A stretch of DNA of 64,000 nucleotides, from the IMG/VR virus record IMGVR_UViG_3300028805_000045, one strand, 5' to 3'. Within the stretch, counting starts at the first letter, position 1. Every line of letters begins with the position of its first letter. Origin of the DNA: a virus. Taxonomy: Duplodnaviria; Heunggongvirae; Uroviricota; Caudoviricetes. Below the pieces are notes generated by a model. The model was not told the origin of the DNA and searched no databases. It was given only the letters and a program-made list of their open reading frames with translations. The position numbers were made by a program, and so were the translations under genes. Positions 29,835 through 50,757 of this stretch are shown here, one piece after another.

Positions 29835-29843
29835 ACTTACACC

Positions 29844-33876: not shown

Positions 33877-33878
33877 AA

Positions 33879-35423: not shown

Positions 35424-35489
35424 ATCCTTTTATCTCCTTTTCATCTTAGTCGTTGTCACGACCGTAGGTTTTCTTCTTTATATATTTAT

Positions 35490-35537
35490 TATGCTATTTT
35501 ATATATTTATTATACTATAATTTTTATCTAAAGTCAA
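35490..35537 (-). promoter_or_regulatory. Promoter cassette copy (-10 region partly duplicated) upstream of the vWA gene
   Basis: Motif match. Confidence 0.5.
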
Positions 35538-35839: not shown

Positions 35840-35842
35840 CTC

Positions 35843-36578: not shown

Positions 36579-36961
36579 TCAGTTTCAAGCTCCTTTAAGG
36601 CGTTTAAATCATGCTGAAGATTTTGAATATAATGCTTTACTGAGAATACATTATAATCATCCTCATAATCACCGCCATCATGCCGAATAGCAATATACCA
36701 TCCAGGACCATCATAATGATAATAAGCATTTCGAAGCCATGTCTTTTGTTGAAGATATTTTAAATCATCCTCAGATTCTATTTTATAACAATATTCGTAA
36801 TCTTCTGTTGTTAGTAATTCAATATAACACTTTGGAATTTGTTTTTCTGGCATAAGTTCTACTTCATGCTTTTCTGCATCTCGTTTACTTGTAAATGTTT
36901 TTCCATCACTAGTAATATAAACTTTGTATTCTTGTGAACGAACTCGAATTTCCTCTTTCAT
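36575..36961 (-). CDS. Hypothetical protein
   Basis: 128-aa ORF. Confidence 0.45.
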   Translation of the reverse strand: MKEEIRVRSQEYKVYITSDGKTFTSKRDAEKHEVELMPEKQIPKCYIELLTTEDYEYCYKIESEDDLKYLQQKTWLRNAYYHYDGPGWYIAIRHDGGDYEDDYNVFSVKHYIQNLQHDLNALKELETE

Positions 36962-36962
36962 A

Positions 36963-37589
36963 TTATTCTCCTTTCATTGGATAGGTGTATAAATCTTCAA
37001 TTGGAATTTTTAACGATTGTAAATCAAACCAACGTTGACGTATTTCTCCAATAATTTCTTCAATGTTTACTGGTTTACAATCATGACTATCCATTCCTAC
37101 ATGATAACAGAATGGATTGTTAGGATATAAAAAGTTAGCTTGTTGATGAGTATGCCCATGTAAAGCGATTACATGTTGATTAAAATGCTTTTCATCATAA
37201 TTAGCTGTCAATGTTGGATAGTGAGAAAGATAACATGTAATTTTATTGTTATATTTAAACATAGTTGCCCAAGAAGCTTCTGGATTACTAATTAATGAAA
37301 CATTTTTACATTCTTTAGTAATTTCTTCTACTTTCGACCTTGAATCGTGGTTTCCTCGAATCCACCAAATAAAACCATTTAATTTTTTAATATATGCAAT
37401 TGCATCCGCAGTATCTGTCAAAGCCATATCACCAAGATGATAAACAATATCATCTGATTTTACTATACTATTCCATTTTTCTACAATTATTTCATTCATT
37501 TCTCTTACAGAAGAAAATCCGCGGGGACTCCACAAAAATTCTGGCTTATGAGAAAAATGTGTATCACTCGTTAGATAGATTTCACTCAT
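36963..37589 (-). CDS. Calcineurin-like metallophosphoesterase
   Basis: Carries DTHFSH...GDMALTD...GNHD...HGHTHQ motifs. Confidence 0.7.
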   Translation of the reverse strand: MSEIYLTSDTHFSHKPEFLWSPRGFSSVREMNEIIVEKWNSIVKSDDIVYHLGDMALTDTADAIAYIKKLNGFIWWIRGNHDSRSKVEEITKECKNVSLISNPEASWATMFKYNNKITCYLSHYPTLTANYDEKHFNQHVIALHGHTHQQANFLYPNNPFCYHVGMDSHDCKPVNIEEIIGEIRQRWFDLQSLKIPIEDLYTYPMKGE

Positions 37590-38065
37590 ATTTCCAATTC
37601 TCCATCAATAGTAACCATTCCAATTTCACGTTTGTCTTCGTGATTAGGAATAGTAAGCGAAGCGCGCATACGATGAATAACGTTTTCTGGAACTAACGCG
37701 CGGCCTTCACGATTTTTATTATGTTCAATGCAAGTCTCAGCAGAAGCCGTAAAAATTACATAAACAATATTATATTCAGTAAAATCAAGATCAATCGCTG
37801 CGGTTAGCTTTTTACGCGAAGCTGCATTAAGTTGGGTTGCATCAGCAAGTACGTGCTTACCTTCGCTAAGAGCCTGTGCAATTAATTTAGAATAGTGCCG
37901 AAATACTTCTTTTTCGTGAGAAAAATAATCTTCATCTGATTTAATAAACCGAAAACGAATTTCGTCACGAGAAATCCATTTTACAGAATCAGAAGTAAAT
38001 TGCTTCGCAAAGGTAGATTTGCCGCACCCAGGAGCACCGCAAAGAATATATAAAGTAGGCTTCAT
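37586..38065 (-). CDS. P-loop kinase (polynucleotide kinase-like)
   Basis: LYILCGAPGCGKSTFAKQF forms a Walker A. Overlaps the phosphoesterase gene by 4 nt. Confidence 0.6.
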   Translation of the reverse strand: MKPTLYILCGAPGCGKSTFAKQFTSDSVKWISRDEIRFRFIKSDEDYFSHEKEVFRHYSKLIAQALSEGKHVLADATQLNAASRKKLTAAIDLDFTEYNIVYVIFTASAETCIEHNKNREGRALVPENVIHRMRASLTIPNHEDKREIGMVTIDGELEI

Positions 38066-38533: not shown

Positions 38534-38638
38534 GATAGTTATGGAAGGGATTCGAACCCTTGTCTCTTACTTTTTACGGTAAGTGTCTTAGTCCCCTAGA
38601 CAACCTCGGCTAGTATTTGCTGTAAGAGCCGAATAACT
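38534..38638 (-). tRNA. Atypical tRNA-like element
   Basis: D, anticodon (loop CGTAAAA) and T arms are recognisable. It is flanked by the 9-bp inverted repeat GATAGTTAT/ATAACTATC and carries an extra 5' hairpin containing CTCTTACAGCAAA. There is no canonical acceptor stem. Confidence 0.25.
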
Positions 38639-38646
38639 ATCTTAAT

Positions 38647-38721
38647 TGGAGCCGCCGATAGGATTTGAACCTACAACATCTCGCTTACAAGGCGAGCCCA
38701 CTACCATTGTGATACGACGGC
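38647..38721 (-). tRNA. tRNA-Thr (TGT)
   Basis: Acceptor GCCGTCG/CGGCGGC, loop CTTGTAA, CCA encoded. Confidence 0.8.
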
Positions 38722-38797
38722 ATATTTCTAGACTCTTCCATATTAACCATATATGTAATAAAATGTCGGTAAGTATATTGCTGTAAGAGTCATAATT

Positions 38798-39235
38798 TTA
38801 TTTATAAAGTTGAAATTTTTTTGAAATTTTCCAAGCAACTTCATCTGGAAGCGGCTTAAATCCAATACATGTCAATGTTCTTCCAATTCCATTTTCATCA
38901 ATTTTTTCAGGAGTAAGCTCAGTTAAACAAGCATCCCAAATTAAAAAATAATCTTTATTTTCTTTTAATCCAAGTTCTTTTGCTATATTTGTAGCTTTCA
39001 TTAGTTGATTATAATTTTTAGCTTCACATACTGTTTTTGTAAAAACTCCTTTAAACCATTGATCCATTACTTCTTTATCTAATAAAACTGAAACATTATA
39101 TCCAGTTTCATTTTCAATTGCGGGAGTATTACGAATTTGATTTGATATAAAAGCAAAAGAAGCATGTGCTACTTGCGCGGCTAATTTTCCTGCACTCATA
39201 TTTAAATCTTTACGCGCAATAATTATTTGTCTCAT
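38798..39235 (-). CDS. Peptidyl-tRNA hydrolase, PTH2 family
   Basis: IIARKDLNMSAGKLAAQVAHAS matches the PTH2 consensus (VRTDLGMGKGKIAAQCSHAA). Confidence 0.65.
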   Translation of the reverse strand: MRQIIIARKDLNMSAGKLAAQVAHASFAFISNQIRNTPAIENETGYNVSVLLDKEVMDQWFKGVFTKTVCEAKNYNQLMKATNIAKELGLKENKDYFLIWDACLTELTPEKIDENGIGRTLTCIGFKPLPDEVAWKISKKFQLYK

Positions 39236-39424
39236 AAAATCACCATAAGTTCTAGGCTCGTAATTAATTATTAATTTAAAACGCTATCTCTAAGTATTTC
39301 ATAAAATAATTTTTATTACATTTGCTGTAATGAGCCTATGTTTATTTATAAGCAAGATCGTTATATATAATTTATTATCGCCCATCAAATTATCTCCAAT
39401 ATTAATTGCTGTAACGATCTTGAA

Positions 39425-39499
39425 TGGCAGGCGAGGTAGGAATCGAACCTACGTTAGCGGAGTCAAAGTCCGTTGCCTTAGCCGCTTGGCTACTCGCCT
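39425..39499 (-). tRNA. tRNA-Gln (TTG)
   Basis: Acceptor AGGCGAG/CTCGCCT, loop CTTTGAC, T-loop TTCGATT, CCA encoded. Confidence 0.75.
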
Positions 39500-39507
39500 A
39501 TAAGTAA

Positions 39508-39581
39508 TGGGCAAGAAGGGAGTTGAACCCTCAAAACCCAGATTCTTAGTCTGGTACCTATGCCAATTCGGTTACTCGCCC
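39508..39581 (-). tRNA. tRNA with anticodon loop CTAAGAA (anticodon AAG, a Leu codon family; short variable arm, A73)
   Basis: Acceptor GGGCGAG/CTTGCCC and a perfect anticodon stem CCAGA/TCTGG. Position 34 is an unusual A. Confidence 0.55.
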
Positions 39582-39788
39582 TCACTCTCGAACATATCAA
39601 GTAGTTCTTCTTCAGAAAGAACTTGTTCAAGCTCAGAAAGCTGAATATCTACTACGTTTTTAGTCCCATAATATTCAGTAGCTCGCTGAGCGGCTTCTCC
39701 ATAAGAAGTTGCGGCGACAATGCCAGAATCAGTACGAGGTTCATTGTCAATTTCATCCCAGTAATTAATAACGTAGTAATACATTTTC
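39572..39788 (-). CDS. Small acidic hypothetical protein (start reassigned to MKMYYYV so that it does not overlap a tRNA)
   Basis: The N-terminus of ORF-track entry 39572..39931 is a translated tRNA. Confidence 0.4.
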
Positions 39789-39868
39789 ATTCTCCTTTCA
39801 ATACAAGTCACATTTAAAATAGCTGCATTTTTTAGTGCGGTTTTTGTTAAGATTGCTGTTAATGACTT

Positions 39869-39959
39869 TGGCGGGGAGGGTGGGATTCGAACCCACGCAC
39901 CAGTTACCTGGCCTAATTGCTTAGTAGGCAACCCCCTTCAACCACTTGGGTACCTCCCC
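39869..39959 (-). tRNA. Type II (Ser-like, G73) tRNA with anticodon loop CTACTAA (formal anticodon ACT; the loop contains CTA)
   Basis: Acceptor GGGGAGG/CCTCCCC is a perfect stem. Long variable arm. CCA encoded. The acceptor closely resembles that of the CTA tRNA at 43958. Confidence 0.55.
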
Positions 39960-40471
39960 ATATAAGCCGATGTATTAATATTGCGGCAACATTAATACTT
40001 TCTGTATATGCTATATAAAGCCGCGCAATGTATAGGCTATCGGCTTAGCCCATTATAATACGGTTTCGAGGTCGTACACCGAAAACCCCAACATGTTGTT
40101 AGCGTTTTTTATTTTACTCTCACGCTGTTGCGATCGCTATATACCGCACTACGTCTTAGAGGACTTTATTTTGCCGCATTCGGGGCATGAAGTGTTCCGT
40201 TCTAAGAATCTTCTCTCCGCGAATTATGTTCTTTTTATATACCGCAGGAACATAGCTAATTAGCGGTTTCTCCCCTATCTTTCAGCGGCCGACCTACTCA
40301 ATAGGCAAGAAATATATATAAGAAGCGGTGACGTATACTTTGGCCGCAATTTGTTTCTAACAAGAGATTACGTCTCACACTGCCAGTCATCAAGTTCTTT
40401 AGCTTGCTTGACACGGCTCCAAGAGGAAGAAAACACAGTACGACTCATTTTACGCATAATCATCACTTTCC

Positions 40472-40522
40472 TTTCTCTCTTTCTTACATATATATTATAC
40501 TATAAATTTTATTTATAGTCAA
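40472..40522 (-). promoter_or_regulatory. Promoter cassette copy driving an ORF-poor segment and the downstream tRNAs
   Basis: Full cassette including the CTTTCTTACATATATATTATAC leader. Confidence 0.5.
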
Positions 40523-40839
40523 ATATTAATTCCATGAGATTTCATTGCGGATTTTAAAGAATTATTTGTAAGAGTTGTATTAACACTACTACAAGTGGTA
40601 GTAGCTGTATCTCCAGATTTGCATGTTACTTGATTCCACCAAGGATTAGGATCTCCAGTAGATTGCCATGTAATACTAGGAGTAGCAGTAATTTGTGTGC
40701 CGATGCAGTTAATACAAGAGTTCTGCCAAGGAGCCATAATTGCTCCACAAGAAGGGCATTTCCAGCCATATTGAATCGGTAATGAAACTGGTTTATCAGA
40801 ATTAGATTTAACAGTATATGTTGTTGAAGTACTATCCAT
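40519..40839 (-). CDS. Cys-rich small protein
   Basis: 106-aa ORF. Confidence 0.4.
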   Translation of the reverse strand: MDSTSTTYTVKSNSDKPVSLPIQYGWKCPSCGAIMAPWQNSCINCIGTQITATPSITWQSTGDPNPWWNQVTCKSGDTATTTCSSVNTTLTNNSLKSAMKSHGINI

Positions 40840-40841
40840 TT

Positions 40842-41357
40842 TTAATTCTCCTTTAAAAATTTATCTAAAATAGGAACATTGACATTAGAATTAATTACTG
40901 AACCCACTTTTCGTGGTTGATATAAAGCAATAGTTTGTAGAAGATTACGATCAATTCCATAAATTAAGTCATTAATTTCATCTTCAACTTCTGCACGAGG
41001 TCTACAAAAATCTTTATATTCTTCTTTTCGTTTTTCGATTTCAATTAAAGCATTATTTCGAGTTATATCTTCTATTTCAATTGTATATAAGACTTCATCG
41101 TTACGTTGTTTACATTTACAACAAATATAAGTTTCATAGATTTTTATAACTAAACGACCAAGCTGTTTTTCTTTTTCTCGTTTTTTATTAGCTTCATTAT
41201 AATAAACATTCCAAGAAAATATAAAATATGGTGAAGAATCCCACCAAAAATGCTCACATTCTTTTGGAACATAAAGTGTTGGAACTTCTTCTACTTTATT
41301 ATTGTTTTTCTTTTTTGTAAACCAGCTCATTTTATTCTCCTTTAAATGGTAGGGCAT
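40842..41357 (-). CDS. Hypothetical protein
   Basis: 171-aa ORF. Confidence 0.45.
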   Translation of the reverse strand: MPYHLKENKMSWFTKKKNNNKVEEVPTLYVPKECEHFWWDSSPYFIFSWNVYYNEANKKREKEKQLGRLVIKIYETYICCKCKQRNDEVLYTIEIEDITRNNALIEIEKRKEEYKDFCRPRAEVEDEINDLIYGIDRNLLQTIALYQPRKVGSVINSNVNVPILDKFLKEN

Positions 41358-41423
41358 GGTGGAATCGAACCATCCTGACCAGTTTATAAGACTGGCGTAA
41401 TCATACCAATATACGAATGCCCC
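41347..41423 (-). tRNA. tRNA-Ile (TAT)
   Basis: Acceptor GGGGCAT/ATGCCCT, loop CTTATAA, CCA encoded. Confidence 0.7.
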
Positions 41424-41434
41424 ATATAGAGGAA

Positions 41435-41620
41435 TTAATCCTCTTCGCCAAAATAGTCATCTATAGTTTTAGGACTAAAACTTAAAGCAATTGCGAATCG
41501 CCGAAAAAAACTCACTAATTCACTCATAGTTAAATCTTCTGAACAGTGAAAGGTTAAATCTACATCAGGATAATTTTCTGGATAAAATGAAAAACTTAAA
41601 GTTGCATTTTTTTCTTCCAT
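41435..41620 (-). CDS. Hypothetical protein
   Basis: 61-aa ORF. Confidence 0.35.
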   Translation of the reverse strand: MEEKNATLSFSFYPENYPDVDLTFHCSEDLTMSELVSFFRRFAIALSFSPKTIDDYFGEED

Positions 41621-41627
41621 TTTATTT

Positions 41628-41675
41628 CTCCTTTCTTACATATATATTATAACATAATTTTAAATTAAAGTCAAT
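41628..41675 (-). promoter_or_regulatory. Promoter cassette copy
   Basis: Motif match. Confidence 0.5.
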
Positions 41676-41709
41676 TATTTATACGTTCTTCAATTAATAT
41701 AACTTCATT

Positions 41710-41880
41710 CAGACATATGTTCTCCAAAATAATCATACACTATTTGTAAACAATTATCAAACATATCGTTTGCTTTTTCATAGGCACATTGAGTAGTATA
41801 ATCTTTCCCAAAAAAATCGTCATCAGAAATACGTAAATTTTCTAAACGGTCTAATAAATCTGTTACAAACATCATAGCAA
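41710..41880 (-). CDS. Small hypothetical protein
   Basis: Manual 56-aa ORF MMFVTDLLDRLENLRISDDD... Confidence 0.3.
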
Positions 41881-41889
41881 TAATTCTCC

Positions 41890-42210
41890 TTAATAAGAAA
41901 AATGTTTAAAGCATTCTGGTTCTTCTTTTTCAAAAAATCCACCGCGTTCTTCATTCCATTCAAAATAGGTACGACGATCTTTTGTTGCACTATCATAACA
42001 GCCGGGATATAAAGTTAAAATAAATCCGGCTTTAAACATATACTCATGAATATCACACCAATTTTCATGCATAGCGCGAACTGCGGTTTCATATTCATAG
42101 TAAAAGCCTACGTCATCTTGTGTGCCACAATCAGGCCAGCCGCATTCATTTGGTGCAGGAATTTTTGAGAATAAAAGAATACGATAAATGGGCTTTTGAT
42201 CTTTATACAT
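41890..42210 (-). CDS. Hypothetical protein
   Basis: 106-aa ORF. Confidence 0.45.
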   Translation of the reverse strand: MYKDQKPIYRILLFSKIPAPNECGWPDCGTQDDVGFYYEYETAVRAMHENWCDIHEYMFKAGFILTLYPGCYDSATKDRRTYFEWNEERGGFFEKEEPECFKHFSY

Positions 42211-42227
42211 ATTATCACCTTTCTTGA

Positions 42228-42298
42228 AGCTTCATAGAGGAATTGAACCTCTATATAGTGTTTACGAAACACTTATGTTGCCATTACATTAATGAAGC
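42228..42298 (-). tRNA. tRNA-Thr (CGT)
   Basis: Acceptor GCTTCAT/ATGAAGC, loop TTCGTAA, T-loop TTCAATT. CCA is not encoded. Confidence 0.7.
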
Positions 42299-42299
42299 G

Positions 42300-42627
42300 T
42301 TTGATGGCTGATTTTTCTGCTGTCCGCCAGCCATCGGCACATACGTCCGATAAGAACACAGGTTTTTCCGTTGCCTGCCAACCGCCGGCACATTCGTCCG
42401 GTAAGTCTGTCGGATTTTAGGTGTCAGCCCACCGGTAATAATTGTTACCTCAAAATAAGCCAGATATACCAATAACATTTGTATATCTTTAACGACCGGG
42501 CTCACGGCGACCACCTCCTTAAGATTCCCTAGTGGTTCGTCTGGGATACGAGAATTTTCCTTTCCGATTTGGTTCGCGACCCGCTTCGGCGGCAACACCT
42601 TTATACATTCCCATTCTCAAAGGTTAC
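42300..42627 (-). ncRNA. GC-enriched ORF-free segment between two tRNAs, candidate structured RNA
   Basis: Contains a tandem pair of roughly 48-nt repeats (GCCAGCCATCGGCACATACGTCCGATAAG / GCCAACCGCCGGCACATTCGTCCGGTAAG) and a CCGC-UUCG-GCGG tetraloop hairpin. The overlapping ORF 42284..42598 is judged spurious. Confidence 0.3.
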
Positions 42628-42703
42628 TGGTCGGAGTGGTGGGACTTGAACCCACGACTTCTTGATCCCAAATCAAGCACGCTACCAACTGCGCTACACC
42701 CCG
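42628..42703 (-). tRNA. tRNA-Pro (TGG)
   Basis: Acceptor CGGGGTG/CACTCCG, loop TTTGGGA, CCA encoded. Fused directly to the promoter leader. Confidence 0.8.
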
Positions 42704-42736
42704 TTCTTTACATATCTATTATACTATAATTTTAAC
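42702..42736 (-). promoter_or_regulatory. Promoter cassette copy fused directly to tRNA-Pro
   Basis: The leader ...ATATGTAAAGAA runs straight into the tRNA 5' end CGGGGTG. Confidence 0.5.
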
Positions 42737-42743
42737 TAAAAGT

Positions 42744-42814
42744 CAAATATTAAAGCGTCCAGTTGGAGTTGAACCAACTAACAAGGATTTTGCAGACCCT
42801 CTCCCGACCGACGA
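42744..42814 (-). tRNA. tRNA-Cys (GCA)
   Basis: Acceptor GCGTCCA/TGGACGC, loop CTGCAAA, T-loop TTCAACT. Confidence 0.75.
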
Positions 42815-42942
42815 GAATTGGACGCATATGCACAAGATAATAAGCAGTTGACAATCTGCATCTCTTATATTAGTGATAGCTGCCTGTTCTATCCTTTATT
42901 ATCTTATGCTCCGCTCTTTCTACACATGGCAGATGAGTTAAA

Positions 42943-43014
42943 CAGGAAGGTAGGGACTCGAACCCCAATCAACGGTTTTGGAGACCGTCATGCTACCAAT
43001 TGCACCACCGACCT
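42943..43014 (-). tRNA. tRNA-Trp (CCA), imperfect acceptor
   Basis: Perfect anticodon stem ACGGT/ACCGT with loop CTCCAAA. T-loop TTCGAGT. The acceptor has 2 mismatches. Confidence 0.55.
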
Positions 43015-43251
43015 ATGATATGATAGGTTGATCCTGGTGTTTCCTCTTTTAAATACGACAAACTTGAATAAAATTTCCAGTTTCTATTCTTAAAAATTAC
43101 CGTATCCCTATCTAACGACATTTCAGCCGCTGTTTACAGTTCTACTGCCTTTCGGAATAAACAGCAATCCCCTGGTGGCATGGGTTGGTAACGATCCAAC
43201 CTATGTGGATTTTCAGTCCACTGCTAATCCGTCTCAGCTACCGTGCCATAA

Positions 43252-43339
43252 TGGGTGGAAAGACAGGACTTGAACCTGCACTTCTCTAATGAGAAATCGG
43301 GGCCACAACCCGACGCGTATACCATTTCGCCACTTACCA
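43252..43339 (-). tRNA. Type II tRNA with anticodon loop TTGTGGC (anticodon GTG, His-type; C73)
   Basis: Acceptor TGGTAAG/CTTTCCA (1 mismatch). Long variable arm TTCTCATTAGAGAA. CCA encoded. Confidence 0.45.
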
Positions 43340-43350
43340 CATATATCTAA

Positions 43351-43422
43351 TGCGAGTGGTGGGAATTGAACCCACTGTACCTTGATTAAAAGTCAAGTGC
43401 CTTACCGGTTGGCTACACTCGC
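43351..43422 (-). tRNA. tRNA-Lys (TTT)
   Basis: Acceptor GCGAGTG/CACTCGC, loop CTTTTAA. Confidence 0.8.
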
Positions 43423-43425
43423 ATA

Positions 43426-43501
43426 TGGAGCTGAGGACGGGACTTGAACCCGTGGTCTTGCGCTTACCAAGCGCACGCTTTACCAACTAAGCTACGACAG
43501 C
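43426..43501 (-). tRNA. tRNA-Thr (GGT)
   Basis: Loop TTGGTAA and T-loop TTCAAGT. The acceptor has 2 internal mismatches. CCA encoded. Confidence 0.65.
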
Positions 43502-43503
43502 AT

Positions 43504-43620
43504 TGGAGCAAGTACACGGATTTGAATCGCGGATACTGTGATTAATGGTGGAAGACCCAAGATTCAAACTTGGCCCTACTTGCGCGAGTATGTGCCTTCA
43601 CTACACCAATCTCCCAAGTC
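43504..43620 (-). tRNA. Degenerate tRNA-like sequence
   Basis: Acceptor GCAAGTA/TACTTGC and a T-loop TTCAAAT are present but no anticodon arm can be folded. Confidence 0.2.
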
Positions 43621-43785
43621 ACATGCTTTTCCAACTAAACTAATGGCGCATATAAATCACATCCATTCTCCCGATTCTCCAAATGGAACCTATCCACCGT
43701 AATTAACTTTTCATTAATTACCCTTATAGCGTCAACGAAGGATATAGACTATTTTATTGATCGTACTTTTATCTCATGTGATTAA

Positions 43786-43859
43786 TGGAGCAAGTAGCGG
43801 GAATTGAACCCGCGACGTCTGCATGGCAAGCAGAAGTTTTACCGCTAAACTATACCTGC
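43786..43859 (-). tRNA. tRNA-Gly (GCC)
   Basis: Acceptor GCAGGTA/TACTTGC, loop TTGCCAT, CCA encoded. Confidence 0.8.
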
Positions 43860-43865
43860 ATAAAC

Positions 43866-43955
43866 TAGACCATTTAATTTATAGGAATCGAACCTATTCA
43901 AAAATTTTTTACAGAAATTTTTTTTAACCAAAATTAATTGCCGAAATGGTCTATA
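43866..43955 (-). tRNA. AT-rich tRNA-like element (loop CTGTAAA, i.e. GTA)
   Basis: Outer stem TAGACCATTT/AAATGGTCTA and T-arm ATAGG-TTCGATT-CCTAT, with an AATTT/AAATT stem bearing a CTGTAAA loop. The spacing is non-canonical. Confidence 0.2.
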
Positions 43956-43957
43956 AT

Positions 43958-44047
43958 TGGCGGGGGAGCTCGGATTTGAACCGAGAATGACGCCCTCAGA
44001 AGGCCCAGGTTTTAGAGACCTGCGTGTTGCCGTTACACCACTCCCCT
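43958..44047 (-). tRNA. Amber suppressor tRNA, anticodon CTA; type II scaffold (long variable arm), Ser-like
   Basis: Anticodon stem CAGGT/ACCTG with loop CTCTAAA (CTA = revcomp of plus 44013-44015). T-arm CTCGG-TTCAAAT-CCGAG. 3' end is ...CTCCCCCGCCA. The loop flanks GGTCT.CTAAAACC resemble this phage's tRNA-Ser(TGA) (GGTCTTGAAAACC) and the E. coli serU/supD Ser tRNA. Confidence 0.75.
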
Positions 44048-44050
44048 TTA

Positions 44051-44184
44051 TGGTGGGCGAGGACAGGATTTGAACCTGCGAAGCTTTCGCCTTGGATTTA
44101 CAGTCCATTAAGTAGCTGTTAGAACCTCAATTACTAGATTCATTTTATCGGTTCCAATGTCTTTGACCACTTGACTACTCGCCC
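44051..44184 (-). tRNA. tRNA-Tyr (GTA)-like gene interrupted by a roughly 48-nt insertion at the 5' side of the anticodon loop
   Basis: Perfect acceptor GGGCGAG/CTCGCCC, A73, CCA. Loop CTGTAAA. The insert ACCGATAAAATGAATCTAGTAATTGAGGTTCTAACAGCTACTTAA is flanked by the direct repeat TGGA. Confidence 0.45.
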
Positions 44185-44263
44185 ATATGAGAGTTTTGAA
44201 CACCAAACTCACAACGGTTGCCTTAGGGTAGTAACTTTCCTGCGACTCAGCTCGCAACACTAT

Positions 44264-44349
44264 TGGTGGGCCGCGGTGGAATCGAACCACCTGAGTCATT
44301 GACAGCTGATTTACAGTCAGCGCCGCTTCCATATACGGTATACCGACCC
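44264..44349 (-). tRNA. tRNA-Tyr (GTA), type II
   Basis: Anticodon stem GCTGA/TCAGC, loop CTGTAAA, long variable arm, T-loop TTCGATT, A73, CCA encoded. Confidence 0.75.
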
Positions 44350-44422
44350 ATAAATAACACGACGACTTCTAACTAAATAAATCCCTAATTTATTGTTAAA
44401 ATTATTGCTGTAATCGTCGTAA

Positions 44423-44498
44423 TGGTCTCCCGTGAAGGATTTGAACCCTCATTAATAGATCCGTAGTCTATTGTCCTATTCCGTTAGACGAACGGGAG
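44423..44498 (-). tRNA. tRNA-Arg (ACG)
   Basis: Acceptor CTCCCGT/ACGGGAG, stem ATAGA/TCTAT, loop CTACGGA. Confidence 0.8.
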
Positions 44499-44744
44499 AT
44501 ACAAGAAGCGTTTTTACGCTTCTAGAAACTTTTTGCACGCTAGTGCATAAGATGTTATTGGGCCACGCGCGTCCCACCGCCCTGTTTTAAATTGATTATT
44601 GGTTATCATTCGATCTTTCGATCTCCCAAGTTCTCAATTTAATCATGCGCCAAAGCCTTGTCCGCCCTAGTTAATGTTGAGAATCGCCGTATATAGTACT
44701 GTTCGTGGTGGCGCCTTACATCCATATAACTATATATCCCACGC

Positions 44745-44787
44745 TCTCAACATATTTATTATACTATAATTTTAGAATAAAGTCAAA
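44745..44787 (-). promoter_or_regulatory. Promoter cassette copy
   Basis: Motif match. Confidence 0.5.
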
Positions 44788-44789
44788 TA

Positions 44790-45104
44790 TCAGTATTCTT
44801 TGTATCCATAATGAGTAAGTAATTGCCGCATATTCTGCACACCAACAGGATTCATGCTATGAATATGAAAACCAACAAGTGGAATTTGATGTTCTACAAT
44901 ATATTTACAAATATCATATCCAGAACCATCAAGTCCAATATCATGGTCAAGGTCAATGAAAATTTCATCATTTTTCGTACAACAATCTAATATATCAATT
45001 GTACTATGATAATCTCGGCATACCTGAACTTGGTATTGATTACTTTTTAATATGTTAGCCCAAGTACATTCACGAATATCATCTATATAAATGTAAATTT
45101 TCAT
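44790..45104 (-). CDS. Hypothetical protein
   Basis: 104-aa ORF. Confidence 0.45.
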   Translation of the reverse strand: MKIYIYIDDIRECTWANILKSNQYQVQVCRDYHSTIDILDCCTKNDEIFIDLDHDIGLDGSGYDICKYIVEHQIPLVGFHIHSMNPVGVQNMRQLLTHYGYKEY

Positions 45105-45109
45105 ATTAT

Positions 45110-46270
45110 ATTCTCCTTTAATTTATAAAATGCCAAGCGTTTCAGGCTCTTTTTAACGGTTTCTGTGTTTCCGTATTCACGCATAGTCCATTAGTACCAT
45201 GGGCTTTTGGACTCACCCTATGTAGCTGACAGTATTTCAACTTCCCCACTCATAAGGGATGGTCGATATTTTTATACCGCATCATCCACTCTGCGGTTTA
45301 AATTTTTGCGGGTGTAGATTTTCACTACACATGATAAATAAGTGAATTGGCCGAGTTCTTCTTATTTATCATAGTTACTTTTTGAAGCATTTGCTCTTAT
45401 CTTCTGGAGAAGCACCCTAACACTATGTGTCTACTGATACAATGCACTTTGCATTAACATTGCCACTGTATCCGCTACAGATTATTGAACAATCAAATGA
45501 TTGTTTTTTAATTCTGCTTGCGTTTATTCCACCACCGCAAATATTATTTATATAGCACAAAACCTAAGACACCAAAGATTAGAAAAACGCATCCGCATCA
45601 TCCACTCTGCGGTTTGACGAGAAATTCTTCCCATCTGCTAAAATGCCCCTTACTCTTATTTCTTTAGTATAAAAGACACTTTGTTTAACAATTACTGCGA
45701 CCTTCGCCGTACCTCATAATTCTTCTTGAATATTATGCTACTATTGAAAACCGGGCTGTGGCATAAGTAGCGACCTTATACCATCCGATTCCCGCGCCTA
45801 GCGCCGAGAATAGAGAGGATTGTTTACCTCTAAGTTTCACCCAAACCATTCAGCAGAAATTCATATCTGTATTTGTATTTCTATTTACATACAAATTTCT
45901 GTCTTGGGCTACTCCAACCGCAAACCTTACTTATATGCCATTTCTGGCTTTCATCGACATAGCGACTTGTGGTTTTTCCAGAGTTTGTATTGGCTACCAC
46001 CCCAATACCTTATCTGGATTTGGCCTGGCTCTTAACCTGGCTTCCTATTGTGTCGCCGTAAGGAATCGTGCATTTTCAAGCGAATTACTTGGCGCATACT
46101 CTTAACATTTGGAGTTTCTCCGCTATCGCTAACTATTACTAGTTTTGCGGCCGCACTTGCCTAGTATCCCGGGCAGTAGTGTATGGCTGTTATTCAAGTA
46201 TCCCAAGCTGCGTGGTTAGCGCATCTTCACTTGGTTCATAATTGCTAAACAAAATGTCTTTTACATTTCG
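45110..46270 (-). ncRNA. About 1.15 kb of GC-enriched, ORF-free sequence downstream of a promoter cassette: candidate long structured RNA(s) or an acquired element
   Basis: No ORF of at least 60 aa on the minus strand. A duplicated 23-mer CCGCATCATCCACTCTGCGGTTT occurs twice. Two hairpins covary: GTGTAG-ATTTTCA-CTACAC versus GTGTGG-ATTTTCA-CCACAC. Confidence 0.3.
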
Positions 46271-46274
46271 TTTT

Positions 46275-46319
46275 CCTTTCTTACATATTTATTATATCAT
46301 AGATTTTGAAGAAAGTCAA
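46275..46319 (-). promoter_or_regulatory. Promoter cassette copy driving the 1.15-kb ORF-free region
   Basis: Motif match. Confidence 0.5.
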
Positions 46320-46507
46320 ATATTTAGGTGTGGATTTTCACCACACATACGAGCTTTATTCTCCATGATTCCAAGTTTTATGTCCTCTCCGACTGGAACC
46401 GCTTTTTCGGCGCGTAGTCTCAACCCTCGCATGCTCGCCAACCGTCAACTGCTGCATCCTCATGGATTTGTATTTACGTCTACATATTCCGCCACTAAAT
46501 ATTTGAA

Positions 46508-46585
46508 TGGTGTCCAGTAAAGGATTTGAACCTTCAAAAACATGGGCCTAAACCATGCGCGTCTGCCAAATTGCGCCAACTGGAC
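46508..46585 (-). tRNA. tRNA-Leu (TAG), short variable arm, A73
   Basis: Acceptor GTCCAGT/ACTGGAC, stem CATGG/CCATG, loop TTTAGGC. Confidence 0.65.
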
Positions 46586-46664
46586 ATAATTCGCTTCTAT
46601 TCAGTTTTTCTTTTTTTTCCACAATTTGCTAAAAGAGTCGTATGAAGCGATAACAGTAGACTTT

Positions 46665-46740
46665 GGTATCCTCGGTGGGAGTCGGACCCACAGAACTTCG
46701 GGTTTGAGCCGAATACATATGCCAATTCTGTTACGAGGAC
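46665..46740 (-). tRNA. tRNA-Leu (CAA), short variable arm, A73
   Basis: Acceptor GTCCTCG/CGAGGAT, loop CTCAAAC, T-loop TCCGACT. Confidence 0.65.
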
Positions 46741-46746
46741 ATAAAA

Positions 46747-46824
46747 TGGTAGCGAGAATGGGATTCGAACCCACACTACAGAGATTTTAAGTCTCTTGAC
46801 TCTGCCAAATTGGTCTACCTCGCC
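46747..46824 (-). tRNA. tRNA-Leu (TAA), short variable arm, A73
   Basis: Stem AGAGA/TCTCT, loop CTTAAAA. The acceptor has 2 G-U pairs. Confidence 0.65.
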
Positions 46825-47000
46825 ATATTGCTACTATTAACCGTCGTAGCCACGTGCTCCCCAGGTACGCATTATTAAGAGGCGCGGGCAAGTCTATTAA
46901 AACTAGACACGCTTATCTTCCCGGAGCCGACCCGGTGCCTTTTTACTGCAATTCCAAAAATAGCTTGTTCTTTAAGAAAATTTGCTGACGTGTCTCGGCT

Positions 47001-47074
47001 TGGAGCGATATGCGGGACTCGAACCCGCGTCACCGGCTTGGAAGGCCAGGGCACTACCGCTATACCAATACCGC
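47001..47074 (-). tRNA. tRNA-Gly (TCC)
   Basis: Acceptor GCGGTAT/ATATCGC, loop CTTCCAA, T-loop TTCGAGT. Confidence 0.75.
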
Positions 47075-47105
47075 ATTTGCCTATTTAACCCAATAGGCCA
47101 AGAAA

Positions 47106-47182
47106 GTGGTCGCAACACCTGGACTTGAACCAGGGACTTTCATCTTATCAGGATGACACGCTGACCAACTGCGTCATGTTGC
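47106..47182 (-). tRNA. tRNA-Ile (GAT)
   Basis: Acceptor CGCAACA/TGTTGCG, loop CTGATAA. Confidence 0.8.
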
Positions 47183-47183
47183 G

Positions 47184-47411
47184 TTAAGATTTTTTAGCAA
47201 TAAATTTCATTTCAATTTTAGTATTAGCAGGAATAGAATATGAAAGAAAATAATTGTCGGGAAGAGAACACATAATGCTAGAACCTTCAATTGTAAAACA
47301 ATTAATACAATCTTCATGGCCTCGCTGTTTCAAAGTATCTATTAACCAATTATAAATAGACTTAACAAATTCAGTTTTCGTGGCTTGAATAGATAATTCT
47401 TTCTTTTCCAT
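47184..47411 (-). CDS. Hypothetical protein
   Basis: 75-aa ORF downstream of a promoter cassette. Confidence 0.4.
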   Translation of the reverse strand: MEKKELSIQATKTEFVKSIYNWLIDTLKQRGHEDCINCFTIEGSSIMCSLPDNYFLSYSIPANTKIEMKFIAKKS

Positions 47412-47429
47412 AAAATCATTTCCTTTCTC

Positions 47430-47469
47430 TTGATATATTTATTATATCAAAAAATCTTAAAAAAGTCAA
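47430..47469 (-). promoter_or_regulatory. Promoter cassette copy
   Basis: Motif match. Confidence 0.5.
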
Positions 47470-47475
47470 ATATAC

Positions 47476-47530
47476 AAGACCCGCTATAAACGCGCCCGGC
47501 CATCGGGCATCTTTCCCCATAATGGGGAAA
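47476..47530 (-). terminator. Tandem hairpins (terminator-like) that follow a truncated T-arm-like sequence
   Basis: Minus-strand hairpins CTTTCCCC-ATTAT-GGGGAAAG and GCCCG-ATGGC-CGGGC. The upstream GTTAG-TTCGATT-CTAAC looks like an orphan T-arm. Confidence 0.35.
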
Positions 47531-47594
47531 GGTTAGAATCGAACTAACTATCACGTGCTCTCTATGCAAAAGAAGAATTGCTGACAGGTCTTAA

Positions 47595-47668
47595 TGGCGG
47601 CCGATGAGAGAATTGAACTCCCCTGGGGTGGTTAACAGCCACCTGCCAAACCACTTGGCGAATCGGCC
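47595..47668 (-). tRNA. tRNA-Asn (GTT)
   Basis: Acceptor GGCCGAT/ATCGGCC, stem GGTGG/CCACC, loop CTGTTAA. Confidence 0.8.
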
Positions 47669-47689
47669 ATACGAAAGGGATTTCTCCCT

Positions 47690-47730
47690 TTCAACATATT
47701 TATTATAGCATAATTTTAAATAAGAGTCAA
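47690..47730 (-). promoter_or_regulatory. Promoter cassette copy upstream of tRNA-Asn
   Basis: Motif match. Confidence 0.5.
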
Positions 47731-47733
47731 ATA

Positions 47734-48288
47734 TTAGGGCCACTCGCCTAATGGCTTACCAAGATTTGCACGCTCAACATTAGTATTATAGAAAACACCT
47801 TCTGTTGCTGGGCCAGTTAGAACTTCTTCTGCAATATCTTGATATAGAGTACTAATAATACCATGACAATCGTTTAGATTATCTGCGGCAAACTGCACTA
47901 CGCAATTATTAAATACGACGTAAGTTGTACCAATCCACTGATAACCTTCTTCAGCAGGACAAACAGAGTATGCATAAGCAGGATTACCTTTGAATGCAGT
48001 ATCAAATAGTTCAACCTTACTGGTAAAGGCGCGATTAGTTGGAGTTCCATCAATCATAATTTTTAGTTTAACATTGCCAAAACCTACTTCTTCTGGCAAA
48101 ATTTGCTGTAAAGCCGCGACTTTATCGCCGTTATTACAAGCAAGAACTACTGTTGGATGTTCGCCACTAAAATCAACATTGAAAGCAATTAGAGGATCTC
48201 CGTCAAATAGAGCTTCTAATTTTCTTACTGTAATCGTCCAAGGTGGTAGAATTTTTAATCTTACATTATTCATTTCAGTATACCTCAT
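47734..48288 (-). CDS. Hypothetical protein
   Basis: 184-aa ORF. Confidence 0.45.
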   Translation of the reverse strand: MRYTEMNNVRLKILPPWTITVRKLEALFDGDPLIAFNVDFSGEHPTVVLACNNGDKVAALQQILPEEVGFGNVKLKIMIDGTPTNRAFTSKVELFDTAFKGNPAYAYSVCPAEEGYQWIGTTYVVFNNCVVQFAADNLNDCHGIISTLYQDIAEEVLTGPATEGVFYNTNVERANLGKPLGEWP

Positions 48289-48299
48289 AAATTAGAATA

Positions 48300-50440
48300 G
48301 CAGTAGGTTGCTAGCCACACATCAGAGTCAAATAAAAACTAGACAGACTTATATACATTCTATCCATTGAACTATTAGCCGCGTAAGCGACTAAGTGAGA
48401 TTCGAACTCACATCCCTTGTTATACAGACAAATTAAGAAAATATTGCTGACCTGTCTAAATGGTGCGGCAAATAGCACTCTAAGCTATACATCATTATAG
48501 GGACGTCTCCGTAAACTATAAGGTGTCTCTCACGTAAGCATTACTTTGGTCGCTTACTGGTTGCCACATATAAAGCCGAGCACACCCTCGGCGTGGGTTA
48601 TTAGGGCTGTTATCCTTATAAGGGATACATTTTTTCAACTCCATTACAGGCACCCTACTATTAGAGATTATAGTGTGTAACCGCACACTTACTTACTTCG
48701 CCTGTCTTTTTATTATAGTCTGCCGCTAAGCCGCATGCTACATATCATATTTGATTATGAAGTATTGCTTAGAAAGTTCATTCATAAGCACTTCTCCCAA
48801 ATACGCCAGTAGTAGTTTAGTAAAAATCCGTGTTTTCCGCAGACTTGCATCGTAAAGGAGGCGATGCGAATGGCGGCCCCAGCGGGTTATGATCCCGCGA
48901 TCTCGGCGGTGACAGCGCCGTATTCTAACCAGCTGAACTATGGGGTCATATAGATAGTCTTTAAAGCTAAAGGCTTACGTCATAATCTCACATTGGCATT
49001 ACATATTTATACTGCTGAAGCCACATTTGATCTCAAAGCACGATGGTACCCACATCCGGGAACGATCCGGAATTTTCACCTTGAAAGGGTGACGAACTAA
49101 CCAATTATTCGATGCGGGCATAATTCCAGTGTTGGCGCACCGGAACGACGAGATGCAGTTGACTAGTTATTATTGCGCCAACAATAATAACAACGAATTT
49201 TTAATTTCTATGTTTGTCTTTCATCAACTTTATCTCTCACGTTTTTACACAGATACGTGTCAACTGTTTGCTCTTCATTGGAATCGAACCAATCCTACTC
49301 GGTGGTATATCCGGGCGTGCCTTCCACTACACTATCAGGGCATATAGGCGTTTGATAACCCAGGTTGCGCCCAAACTCTGGGCATGTGTTGTACTTTCAC
49401 ATGATGAAAATGCGGCGACCACATAAACCGCGTTCAAGAGATTCAGGTCATGACTCCCTTCTCTTGGAAGAGCACTAGGATTCCCTTCCCATTTTCATTT
49501 TACTATACTGCGTCAGAATGCTGTTCCTACATTCATTGTTAAGGGTTAGCTTTCACCCTAACCGTTTACAGCGGTCGCATTTTAGCCTACACAATGTGAC
49601 GGGTGCGGAGGGCCCTTCCACCGCTTTTCTGATTTGTTAACAATCAGTAAGGACTTCACCCATTACTTTCCTTCCATCCCGTTTTTCGGCCGTTGTACTT
49701 CTTACGTGGTACATCACGCTTGCCTGATATTCTTCCAATTTAACGCGCAAGTCCGCTAAATTTCCTATTGGTCTCAGTGGAATAGGACGCTGCTTCGATT
49801 TTTTGTTTAGGCCAGAAATCAAGACAACTGGCACTTTTGACTATCGAGGTGGCCCATATATTAGAAACCTGCACTAATATGGCGATTCTTCTAATATACG
49901 TATCTCAATCTGGTCTTCGTCCATCCCCACTTCCCGTTTCCGAAGTGTAGCGCACCATCAACTACGAGTGTGACGGAAACTCACATTTCTTCTTTTACGT
50001 CCTTACTGTTTGGACTTGGCTGTTCTTCAAACTCCATTTAACCCATTCTTCCTAGCGTGTGGTCTAAAGCTTCTTAACCTTAGTTTTTCAAAACTTACAC
50101 GCTAATTACGGCATTTGGGCACCTAATAGGCGCAATGATTTGCGCATTGCTTTAAGCTCCCTTAGCACCGATGCTCTGCCTGACTACCAGAGCTACAGCA
50201 GTCTGGCCCTGCTTGCCGACATCGTTATTTTATATACCGCGAACGATGTGCGGTTGCGCTCTCCAGTGGCCGCCTTCGAGCGGGGCTAGATTCTAAGTGC
50301 ATCAGAGTTTTTTGACACCGTGGCCTTCCTCCGCCACCGCCGGGAGTCGAACCCGGGCAGCGTCGTTACCTTTTCGCCCTAACATCACTACGTCGATGTT
50401 TCTCACCTTGAACGAATACCTTCTAACGGTCTGGTATCAA
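48300..50440 (-). ncRNA. About 2.1 kb GC-enriched, essentially ORF-free island holding one tRNA-Asp, orphan tRNA-like arms and repeated hairpins
   Basis: Only scattered short ORFs. The 14-mer GGTCATGACTCCC(T/G) recurs at 49441 and 50791. An orphan T-arm lies at about 48409-48425 and a GCCC..-type 5' half at about 49262-49345. Confidence 0.3.
48871..48947 (-). tRNA. tRNA-Asp (GTC)
   Basis: Stem CGGCG/CGCCG, loop CTGTCAC, T-arm GCGGG-ATCATAA-CCCGC. The acceptor has 1 mismatch. CCA encoded. Confidence 0.6.
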
Positions 50441-50444
50441 CCGT

Positions 50445-50520
50445 TGGTCGCGGGCCTGGGAGTCGAACCCAGTCCTTGAGGCTTATGAGGCCCATGACTT
50501 AACCGCTTGTCCTGTCCGCG
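50445..50520 (-). tRNA. tRNA-Met (CAT), or Ile2
   Basis: Loop CTCATAA, T-arm CTGGG-TTCGACT-CCCAG. The acceptor has 1 mismatch. Fused to the promoter leader. Confidence 0.65.
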
Positions 50521-50524
50521 ATAC

Positions 50525-50573
50525 TCTCTCTTTCTTACATAATTATTATATCATAATTTTTGTTTTAAGTCAA
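50525..50573 (-). promoter_or_regulatory. Promoter cassette copy fused to tRNA-Met
   Basis: Minus-strand TTGACTTAAAACAAAAATTATGATATAATAATTATGTAAGAAAG. Confidence 0.55.
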
Positions 50574-50584
50574 ATAACTAGACT

Positions 50585-50625
50585 CGAAATTTCATGCTCT
50601 ACCTCTTGAGCTACTCACGCTATTG
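50585..50625 (-). pseudogene. 5' tRNA fragment (acceptor plus D-arm) abutting a promoter cassette
   Basis: GCGTGAG-TA-GCTC-AAGAGGTA-GAGC... is followed directly by the TTGACT -35 element. Confidence 0.35.
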
Positions 50626-50684
50626 CATAAGATGGGAGTTGAACCCACGACACTGAAAGTGTTGTTTGCTGTAAGAGTCTATAA

Positions 50685-50757
50685 TGCGCACTGCTGGACT
50701 CGAACCAACGACGTCTTGCTTGTAAGGCAAGCCTTCTCCCAACTGAAGTAAGCGCGC
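50685..50757 (-). tRNA. tRNA-Val (TAC)
   Basis: Acceptor GCGCGCT/AGTGCGC, stem CTTGC/GCAAG, loop CTTACAA. Confidence 0.7.

Follow-up and report, generated by a model that had tools for sequence, protein, structure and literature searches.

Protein-dependent splicing of transfer RNA (tRNA) is regarded as a trait of archaea and eukaryotes, and to our knowledge bacteria and their viruses are thought to be limited to self-splicing (group I) tRNA introns. Here, we describe an interrupted tRNA-Tyr(GUA) gene, located at positions 44051–44184 on the minus strand of a 64 000-nucleotide stretch of DNA (the window) from a tailed rumen phage (Caudoviricetes; IMG/VR record IMGVR_UViG_3300028805_000045). 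Its insert of 49 nucleotides (nt) has, by our estimate, an even chance of being a maintained intron, excised by nucleases, after which a phage RNA ligase rejoins the tRNA.

The closest described systems each share some features with this locus. Archaeal and eukaryal splicing at bulge–helix–bulge (BHB) motifs (EndA/Sen; RtcB or Trl1) also acts on short, non-self-splicing inserts in the anticodon arm, the tRNA introns of Crenarchaeota likewise occupy non-canonical positions, and the three activities of fungal Trl1 have counterparts in kinase, phosphoesterase and ATP-dependent ligase genes near the phage tRNA. These systems differ from the present case in that no BHB is found here, the tRNA is of bacterial type, the host is bacterial and the splice sites in related phages are set by a tRNA-like stem and an NCCA tail. 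No EndA/Sen homologue (tRNA_int_endo domain) was found among the approximately 30 of the approximately 89 open reading frames (ORFs) of the window that were scanned against Pfam, PHROGs and NCBIfam. Group I introns (for example at position 34/35 of tRNA-Leu(UAA)) also interrupt the anticodon loop of bacterial-type tRNAs, and relatives of this phage carry inserts of group I size; the Tyr insert is too small and lacks the U/G boundary. The tRNA-like modules that RNase P and RNase Z set free (mitochondrial tRNA punctuation, MALAT1 mascRNA, T4 dimeric precursors) resemble the inserts of the relatives in their ends, with a nucleotide +1 and an NCCA end of the kind that RNase P and RNase Z recognise. 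They differ in that the phage modules are nested in the anticodon loop of an outer tRNA; ligation is needed because release of the module breaks the outer tRNA. They also differ from the Tyr insert, which has a tail of 12 nt rather than 4 nt. In the repair of PrrC breaks by T4 Pnkp and Rnl1, a phage kinase-phosphatase and an RNA ligase similarly act on a break in the anticodon arm; in T4 the break is host damage and the ligase is Rnl1, whereas here the break would be programmed by the gene insert and the ligase is Rnl5-like (nick-sealing). Finally, the halves of split and permuted tRNAs (Nanoarchaeum, Cyanidioschyzon) are joined after transcription using BHB motifs and archaeal or eukaryal enzymes, whereas the halves here are contiguous and have no canonical BHB.

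The interrupted tRNA-Tyr gene and its conservation

The gene is 134 nt long (an 85-nt tRNA plus the 49-nt insert). Read on the minus strand from 44184 downward, it begins with GGGCGAG UA GUC AAGUGGUCAAA GAC A UUGGA, continues with the insert ACCGAUAAAAUGAAUCUAGUAAUUGAGGUUCUAACAGCUACUUAAUGGA and resumes with CUGUAAA UCCAA GGCGAAAGCUUCGC ... CUCGCCC A CCA down to 44051. With the boundary chosen by ARAGORN, exon 1 (44153–44184) comprises the 5' strand of the acceptor stem, the D arm and the anticodon-stem strand UUGGA; the intervening sequence (44104–44152) lies at the 5' edge of the anticodon loop; and exon 2 (44051–44103) contains the loop CUGUAAA with the anticodon (44099–44101), UCCAA, a long variable arm, the T arm, the 3' strand of the acceptor stem and ACCA. 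The cloverleaf has a 7-bp acceptor stem and a 3-bp D stem closed by the loop AAGUGGUCAAA and belongs to class II, with the features of a class II tRNA-Tyr in place (G1–C72, A73, the GUA anticodon, U33 and a purine at position 37). In every copy, one unpaired C separates the T stem from the acceptor stem, a detail overlooked in the initial annotation of the stretch. The leader ends in UAU, as is the case for most tRNAs of the cluster.

Exact removal of the 49 nt yields a 5-bp anticodon stem and the 7-nt loop Y32-U33-GUA-A37-A38; the junction expected after splicing is GACAUUGGACUGUAAAUCC, also given as GGTCAAAGRCATTGGAYTGTAAATCCAAGG. Since TGGA ends both exon 1 (44153–44156) and the insert (44104–44107), a repeat that the initial annotation had recognized, the boundary can slide by up to 4 nt toward the 5' end and five boundary choices give an identical mature RNA.

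Neither standard ARAGORN nor an Rfam scan of the window (E ≤ 1) calls this gene. With introns allowed (option -i), ARAGORN reports a tRNA-Tyr(gta) of 85 nt with a 49-nt intron and a score of 104.9, none of 3000 shuffles of the 134 nt is called, and intron-type calls are absent across the 49 kb of the window outside the tRNA part. The Rfam tRNA model aligns four homologues over their full length at 28–30 bits. A chance result is thereby excluded: the 134-nt interrupted gene that had been proposed from the letters alone is real, and its insert is 49 nt by ARAGORN rather than about 48 nt.

Scans with exact patterns recovered interrupted copies of the Tyr gene from two IMG/VR and 11 metagenome contigs of several projects. 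These 13 copies come from independent JGI and ENA assemblies and include eight distinct full-length sequences. The insert (47–50 nt) is present in every copy that reaches the site (13 contigs); one copy found with the 3' exon pattern, on contig L082, ends before it. An intron-less junction pattern had no match in IMG/VR. The 3' exon pattern is absent from 185 579 species genomes and its metagenome matches are interrupted copies, save for the incomplete one on L082; no uninterrupted orthologue of the gene occurs in 410 kb of related loci. Filled and empty alleles were both found for Asn, Lys, Trp, Ile and Leu genes among the relatives (see below), and for the Tyr gene only the filled allele.

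Base pair 11–24 of the D stem is U11–A24 in three and C11–G24 in five of the distinct sequences and is broken in none. All four pairings of D-stem state and intron variant are represented, so that the D-stem change must have recurred or recombined without the pair ever being broken. Variation in the anticodon loop is limited to position 32 (C/U) and position 34, with U33 and A37 always kept; the change at position 34 (GUA to UUA) is confined to the 5'-truncated copy on L082. This copy (L082:1–53), with the loop CUUUAAA and the anticodon UUA, is possibly an ochre-suppressor derivative.

Within the insert, length changes are confined to an A-rich linker and most substitutions fall in one 8-nt stretch. 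Hardly any change touches the blocks AAAUGAAUCUAG and GGUUCUAACAGCUACUUAAUGGA, which are conserved to the same degree as the exons, and conservation in primary sequence extends over about 35 nt of the intron. On the same contigs, both flanking spacers are replaced or contain insertions of 80–150 nt, and the neighbouring uninterrupted tRNA-Tyr(GUA) gene (44264–44348, minus strand; 79 nt upstream, given as 80 nt in the initial annotation) occurs in at least three divergent versions. Nearly invariant exons and insert together with a compensatory D stem, against replaced flanks and neighbour, argue for purifying selection, and by this comparison the pattern is that of a selected gene rather than of a decaying pseudogene or an assembly artefact. 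The exons have kept their tRNA-like character, and all 13 copies keep the insert.

Two folds of the precursor are compatible with all of the sequences. The first combines the cloverleaf with an intron-internal hairpin, GAAUCU-(8 nt)-AGGUUC (44122–44141, minus strand), the loop of which holds the variable positions; 100% of the alignment cells are paired in the eight distinct sequences. The second combines the cloverleaf with a terminal stem of the insert, formed by UGGAACC (44150–44156) and GGUUCUA (44120–44126, both on the minus strand), after which a 12-nt tail, ACAGCUACUUAA, follows. In this fold, the anticodon hairpin is built with the insert's own UGGA, the second repeat copy, which can pair with UCCA as the anticodon stem in the unspliced RNA. 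Overall 99.6% of the cells are paired, with 98% in the candidate terminal stem. A change in contig L089 turns a U.G into a U–A pair in the internal hairpin of the first fold and leaves a C.A mismatch, the only one, in the terminal stem of the second. RNAalifold favours the second fold and adds a helix, ACAGCUA:UGG(A)CUGU, that covers the anticodon. Both folds fit the data equally acceptably, and refolding had been proposed earlier as a check. The second fold would provide a structural reason for the TGGA repeat and would place the insert within the 5' strand of the anticodon stem, where excision would leave a nick in a helix.

The earlier proposal that the insert is a miniature insertion element with a TGGA target duplication is not supported. 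A miniature inverted-repeat transposable element or insertion-sequence derivative was rejected because dispersed copies are absent and the insert occurs only in this gene: a second copy was found neither in the 410 kb of relatives nor in IMG/VR nor in the 185 579 species genomes, the kind of search that the initial annotation had recommended. The 15-mer GGTTCTAACAGCTAC matched 80 IMG/VR loci, 78 of them by chance and outside tRNAs, with a tRNA context only in L001 and L002, and a single 20-mer genome match to the insert was also due to chance. No duplication flanks the other short tRNA inserts of the clade, and the TGGA repeat of the Tyr gene can also be explained structurally, as above. A transfer-messenger RNA (tmRNA)-like RNA was likewise rejected. 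ARAGORN reports no tmRNA, and the 11-codon frame AUG...UAA (MNLVIEVLTAT) in the insert is not conserved as coding sequence, with ACG in place of the start codon in L084 and L091 and six of seven changes non-synonymous. A search of the insert for a sigma-70 promoter or a terminator gave nothing above expectation.

Interrupted tRNA genes in related phages

Close cultured relatives of the phage are absent from INPHARED; the relatives used here come from IMG/VR and from rumen-type metagenomes, as contigs that reach 185 kb in length and are cited below as contig:positions. ARAGORN with introns allowed revealed many more interrupted tRNA genes on them. A rule that emerged from inspection describes 14 of 15 short inserts: from its nucleotide 1 the insert forms an acceptor-like stem of 6–8 bp, and it closes with a tail of 4 nt. 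The tails of the rule-obeying inserts are ACCA (nine), GCCA (two), ACAA (two) and UCCA (one). When tested as a terminal stem of at least 5 bp at nucleotide 1 plus a 4-nt tail, the fit of each insert was matched or exceeded by 5–57 of 2000 shuffles, the tail sequence lying outside this test. The short inserts span 44–116 nt. Inserts that obey the rule occur in Asn, Lys, Thr, Leu, Ile and Trp genes (loci, not in the order of these amino acids: L001:639–761, L082:607–751, L090:7957–8099, L002:3923–4056, L107:3786–3919, L108:7237–7360, L115:10751–10884, L116:8898–9017, L102:6448–6568, L099:7168–7317, L081:2508–2656, L092:8711–8876 and L001:9989–10179).

The boundaries given by the rule reproduce the anticodon loop of an uninterrupted orthologue in eight cases. 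The exons of Asn(GUU) on L001, which has a 49-nt insert, are 100% identical over 74 nt to the tRNA-Asn of the window, and those of Lys(UUU) on L082 are 100% identical over 74 nt to their uninterrupted orthologue; the remaining cases are Trp(CCA) on L081, Ile(UAU) on L099, L102 and L111, Asn(GUU) on L092 and Leu(UAA) on L108. The default boundary of ARAGORN gives a wrong anticodon in five of the eight cases checked.

Several inserts are themselves cloverleaves scoring at 85–90% of the ARAGORN threshold, a level attained by 0–1 of 300 shuffles. At L111:1706–1857 (IMGVR_UViG_3300021399_000003), a CUA-suppressor tRNA (1741–1817) is nested inside a tRNA-Ile(UAU). The inner tRNA is complete (ARAGORN score 109.5; Rfam 50.1 bits, E = 1e-10), and the insert, which sits between U34 and A35, spans it exactly from nucleotide 1 to CCA. 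One family of 70-nt inserts is common to Lys and Thr genes, and Leu inserts located between positions 32 and 33 and between positions 35 and 36 align with each other (z = 7.1). As judged from these alignments and ends, the clade has mobile, tRNA-mimicking intervening sequences with tRNA-type termini. Short introns other than group I, tRNA-like introns and nested tRNAs in phages are undescribed in the full-text literature that we searched.

Inserts of group I size (174–271 nt) are also present in Leu(UAA) and CUA-suppressor genes of the relatives (L001:1845–2120, L002:744–1010, L083:2776–3042, L099:14526–14878 and L102:7069–7348). In these, U is the last exon nucleotide and G the last intron nucleotide; those of L001, L002 and L083, scanned with Rfam (E ≤ 1), did not match Intron_gpI.

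The Tyr insert is an atypical relative of the tRNA-like inserts of the clade and not a clean member. Homology to the 49-nt Asn insert (GAUARAAU...CUAG), which is plausible by eye, was rejected because the alignment score does not exceed that of shuffles.

Proposed maturation and competing explanations

In duplex RNA, ligases of the DRB0094 type seal nicks flanked by 3'-OH and 5'-P. Ends of exactly this kind are left by RNase P and RNase Z/BN, and RNase BN and Thermotoga RNase Z are able to cut after CCA. The window encodes, on the minus strand, an ATP-dependent RNA ligase (27090–28487) related to DraRnl/DRB0094 (Rnl5), which is a candidate for sealing the exons (phrog_968; PHA02142 OB domain, of the DraRnl type, plus RNA_ligase; profile matches to PF21189 and PF09414 and to TIGR02306 with E = 4e-14). 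A calcineurin-type phosphoesterase (36963–37589) and a P-loop polynucleotide-kinase-like protein that resembles the kinase domain of bacterial Pnkp (37586–38065) form a putative RNA end-healing pair. Together with an RlaP nucleotidyltransferase, DUF5662 and metallophosphoesterases, the ligase and the kinase belong to a set of RNA-repair genes at 22292–38065. A cREC_REC (cyclic-phosphate-processing receiver) protein (44790–45104), 94% identical in relatives, is encoded 600 nt upstream of the Tyr genes. All of these genes are on the minus strand.

With a probability of roughly 0.5, we consider the Tyr insert to be a maintained intron that nucleases remove and the phage ligase reseals, and an atypical member of the undescribed tRNA-mimicking family. 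The initial annotation had offered an unusual intron as one possibility among others, and of these it is now the best supported, through fixation of the insert in 13 contigs, the compensatory D stem and the filled and empty alleles in relatives. Endonucleolytic cuts at both ends would release the insert from the precursor, and the tRNA halves, held by the cloverleaf, would be rejoined by the phage RNA ligase, with the kinase and the phosphoesterase assisting if the ends need healing. An insert of 49 nt is too small for self-splicing. A group I intron in particular was rejected: 49 nt cannot hold the core P3–P9, which in practice takes at least about 140 nt; neither the insert region nor the insert alone matches Intron_gpI in Rfam; and the exon-end/intron-end nucleotides at the five possible boundaries are A/A, G/G, G/G, U/U and U/A, never U/G.

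The most economical boundary would be 4 nt upstream of that of ARAGORN, CAU/UGGAACC ... CUUAA/UGGACUG, where a slash marks each cut. The insert would then be a stem-loop closed by UGGAACC:GGUUCUA with the 12-nt tail, located between tRNA positions 27 and 28. The precursor would keep a complete anticodon hairpin, and the nick left in the helix by excision would suit ligases of the Rnl2/Rnl5 type. Most short inserts of this large clade of rumen phages mimic a tRNA or an acceptor/T-arm minihelix and end in NCCA, which points to cleavage of the RNase P type and of the tRNA-3'-end type. A broader proposal, which we make tentatively and at less than even odds, is that the clade possesses an undescribed class of tRNA introns, namely tRNAs, tRNA-like cloverleaves or minihelices nested in the anticodon arm of other tRNA genes, excised by RNase P at nucleotide +1 and a 3'-end nuclease after NCCA and resealed by an Rnl5-type ligase, of which the Tyr insert would be a derived member; the latter would have moved into the anticodon stem so that its excision leaves a sealable nick.

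Several observations weigh against a spliced Tyr intron of this family. The insert fails the 4-nt-tail rule, with at best 2 bp, and reaches 7 bp only with its 12-nt tail; when the length of the tail is left free, 282 of 5000 shuffles (5.6%) are as good as this 7-bp stem, which in addition has the one mismatch in L089. In sequence, the Tyr insert is not significantly similar to any other insert of the clade. The 13 copies differ little from one another (96% mean column identity over the eight distinct sequences), as a result of which the support from covariation rests on one pair. All profile matches of the ligase are below curated cut-offs, and the approximately 30 ORFs scanned include no candidate endonuclease for the insert. 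With an intact Tyr(GUA) gene beside it, the interrupted copy is not obviously needed.

It is also conceivable, although we regard it as unlikely, that the unspliced 134-nt RNA is the functional form. It would then be a tRNA whose anticodon stem bears a bulging expansion arm, or else a tRNA-like decoy or regulator, for instance a decoy against host nucleases directed at tRNA-Tyr or a partner of Ro-like or RNA-repair proteins. The TGGA duplication lets the insert stem and a complete anticodon hairpin form together and has a structural role only if the unspliced form matters; the intron is conserved beyond the need of a simple spacer; and the cluster is rich in other noncoding RNAs (ROOL, skipping-rope and YrlA-like). 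Moreover, tRNA-Tyr is a target of Septu and of retron Ec78, and phage copies of tRNA-Tyr rescue infection (PMC11555353, PMC13096335). Yet in the other interrupted genes of the clade the insert splits the anticodon itself and has to be removed before the tRNA can function, and a decoy would need no canonical loop, whereas U33 and A37 are kept in every variant. We are also not aware of any natural tRNA whose anticodon stem carries a 49-nt bulge.

The gene may alternatively be dead, the insertion having inactivated a redundant Tyr gene that persists by hitch-hiking or because the insertion destroys the site at which a homing endonuclease of the tRNA cluster would cut, with no role for its RNA. 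Such a history would agree with the intact Tyr(GUA) gene 79 nt upstream, with the HNH, GIY-YIG and PD-(D/E)XK endonuclease genes scattered through these tRNA clusters, with the odd unpaired C in the tRNA body and with the low overall divergence among the copies. It is nevertheless improbable in view of the near-invariance of exons and insert between flanks and an intact Tyr neighbour that have diverged or been replaced, the compensatory D-stem change in all four combinations with the intron variants and the restriction of insertions and deletions to the A-rich linker.

A new small self-cleaving or self-splicing ribozyme made of the insert and the tRNA scaffold is very unlikely. The roughly 35 conserved intron nucleotides would be in keeping with one, small ribozymes occur next to tRNAs in these phages (L002:9273–9327; theta ribozymes, PMC10879173), and the kinase, phosphoesterase and cREC proteins would fit cyclic-phosphate chemistry. 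However, the insert has no Rfam ribozyme match even when searched alone at E ≤ 10, 49 nt are too short for two cleavage sites and neither a pseudoknot nor covariation of a catalytic core is visible. The known self-cleaving ribozymes (hammerhead, twister, pistol, hatchet and HDV-like) were rejected in the same way: cmscan gave no relevant match to the region (E ≤ 1) or to the insert alone (E ≤ 10), the sole match of the latter being a meaningless one to HOTAIR (E = 7).

A BHB intron cut by a splicing endonuclease would suit a short insert at a non-canonical position in the anticodon arm, as in Crenarchaeota, of a phage with RNA-ligation enzymes, but its probability is close to nil, as a brute-force search over the five boundaries with bulges of 2–4 nt and helices of 3–5 bp found no canonical motif, in which a 4-bp helix separates two 3-nt bulges that hold the splice sites (one spurious relaxed match breaks the D arm, and the other short inserts have none), the tRNA is that of a bacterium (class II Tyr, G1–C72, A73) and the approximately 30 ORFs scanned contain no tRNA_int_endo domain. 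On the RNA motif that defines it, this reading is refuted.

Genomic setting and implications

The window has a G+C content of approximately 32%, and nearly all of its ORFs of at least 100 residues and all of its tRNA genes are on the minus strand. Its phage genes include a T4-type topoisomerase II, a tail protein and HNH endonucleases. The interrupted gene belongs to a 14-kb cluster (38.4–52.7 kb) of 31 tRNA genes among ROOL, skipping-rope, abiF and YrlA-like RNAs, which Rfam places on the minus strand at 45678–46258 (ROOL, 323 bits), 42836–42903 (skipping-rope), 52614–52650 (abiF) and 50568–50668 and 48334–48434 (two weak YrlA-like matches). PTH2 (38798–39235) and, near the cluster, a DUF2828/DUF7788 protein (33879–35423) are encoded on the same strand. 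A 184-residue ORF within the cluster (47734–48288, minus strand) has more than 1200 close homologues and 841 clusters at 50% identity; its confident AF2 model has a pLDDT of 92 and gave no family, PDB or fold match.

The uninterrupted paralogue at 44264–44348 is itself a weak tRNA, with mismatches in the acceptor stem and a best Rfam match of 26.6 bits, as tRNA-Sec. This nominally intact gene diverges (at least three versions in the relatives) while the interrupted gene is nearly invariant. An amber-suppressor tRNA (CUA) with a long variable arm and G73 (43958–44047, minus strand) follows the interrupted gene after 3 nt and suggests TAG recoding in part of the phage. Also on the minus strand are an 88-nt tRNA-His(GUG) with a long extra arm (43252–43339) and a 65-nt element that resembles tRNA-Tyr(GTA), lacks a D arm and has 17% G+C (43873–43937). 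Several acceptor-less tRNA-like matches (Rfam model positions 7–64) occur in the relatives.

Some relatives have a conserved RNA of about 150 nt, apparently structured, in the interval that separates the interrupted Tyr gene from the tRNA after it (L002:1010–1160, minus strand). It is also found in L081, L083, L089 and L090, is absent from the window and L001 and has no Rfam match listed in the scanned loci. At L002:9273–9327 (minus strand), a match to an HDV-like ribozyme scores 37.8 bits, short of the gathering score; it directly adjoins the 3' end of a tRNA-Ala and is thus placed as published theta ribozymes are.

A further element, (U)UACAGCAA(U/A), is located 10–25 nt past at least nine tRNAs of the cluster, often after AAGAC or UAGAC and usually in a hairpin loop whose stem varies. 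Examples on the minus strand are at 44411, 47584, 46988, 50672, 39412 and 38623 (range 38600–50700), and its core CAGCAA occurs 12 times on the minus strand and once on the plus strand within 38–53 kb. The intron sequence CUAACAGCUAC (44112–44122, minus strand) resembles (U)UACAGCAA: with a weight matrix built from eight such trailer elements, the intron scores among the best 0.013% of positions in the window. The likeness pointed out by the initial annotation is therefore present at a modest level, and its suggestion that the insert shows how these elements spread is a weak lead that depends on the matrix score.

One practical consequence is that standard tRNA finders miss interrupted genes or misassign their anticodons, which affects analyses of codon usage and recoding in phages. 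Since tRNA-Tyr is a known target of bacterial immunity, an interrupted, late-maturing tRNA-Tyr could be an anti-defence device, which is a lead and not a result (PMC11555353, PMC13096335). The nested tRNAs and the mimics with tRNA-type ends suggest a simple mechanism built from ubiquitous enzymes. Phages with theta ribozymes downstream of their tRNAs are reported to be enriched 140-fold in DRB0094-type ligases, and the interrupted genes suggest a role for nick-sealing ligases of this kind, which are strongly enriched in tRNA-rich phages (PMC10879173). A conserved, non-self-splicing insert in a phage that also encodes a ligase, a kinase and a phosphoesterase makes enzyme-dependent tRNA splicing in bacteria directly testable. 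If the tRNA-mimicking inserts are excised and the outer tRNAs resealed as in the broader proposal above, this would represent a third route of tRNA splicing besides self-splicing and the BHB/EndA pathway, and would provide a physiological substrate for the widespread DRB0094-type RNA ligases of phages.

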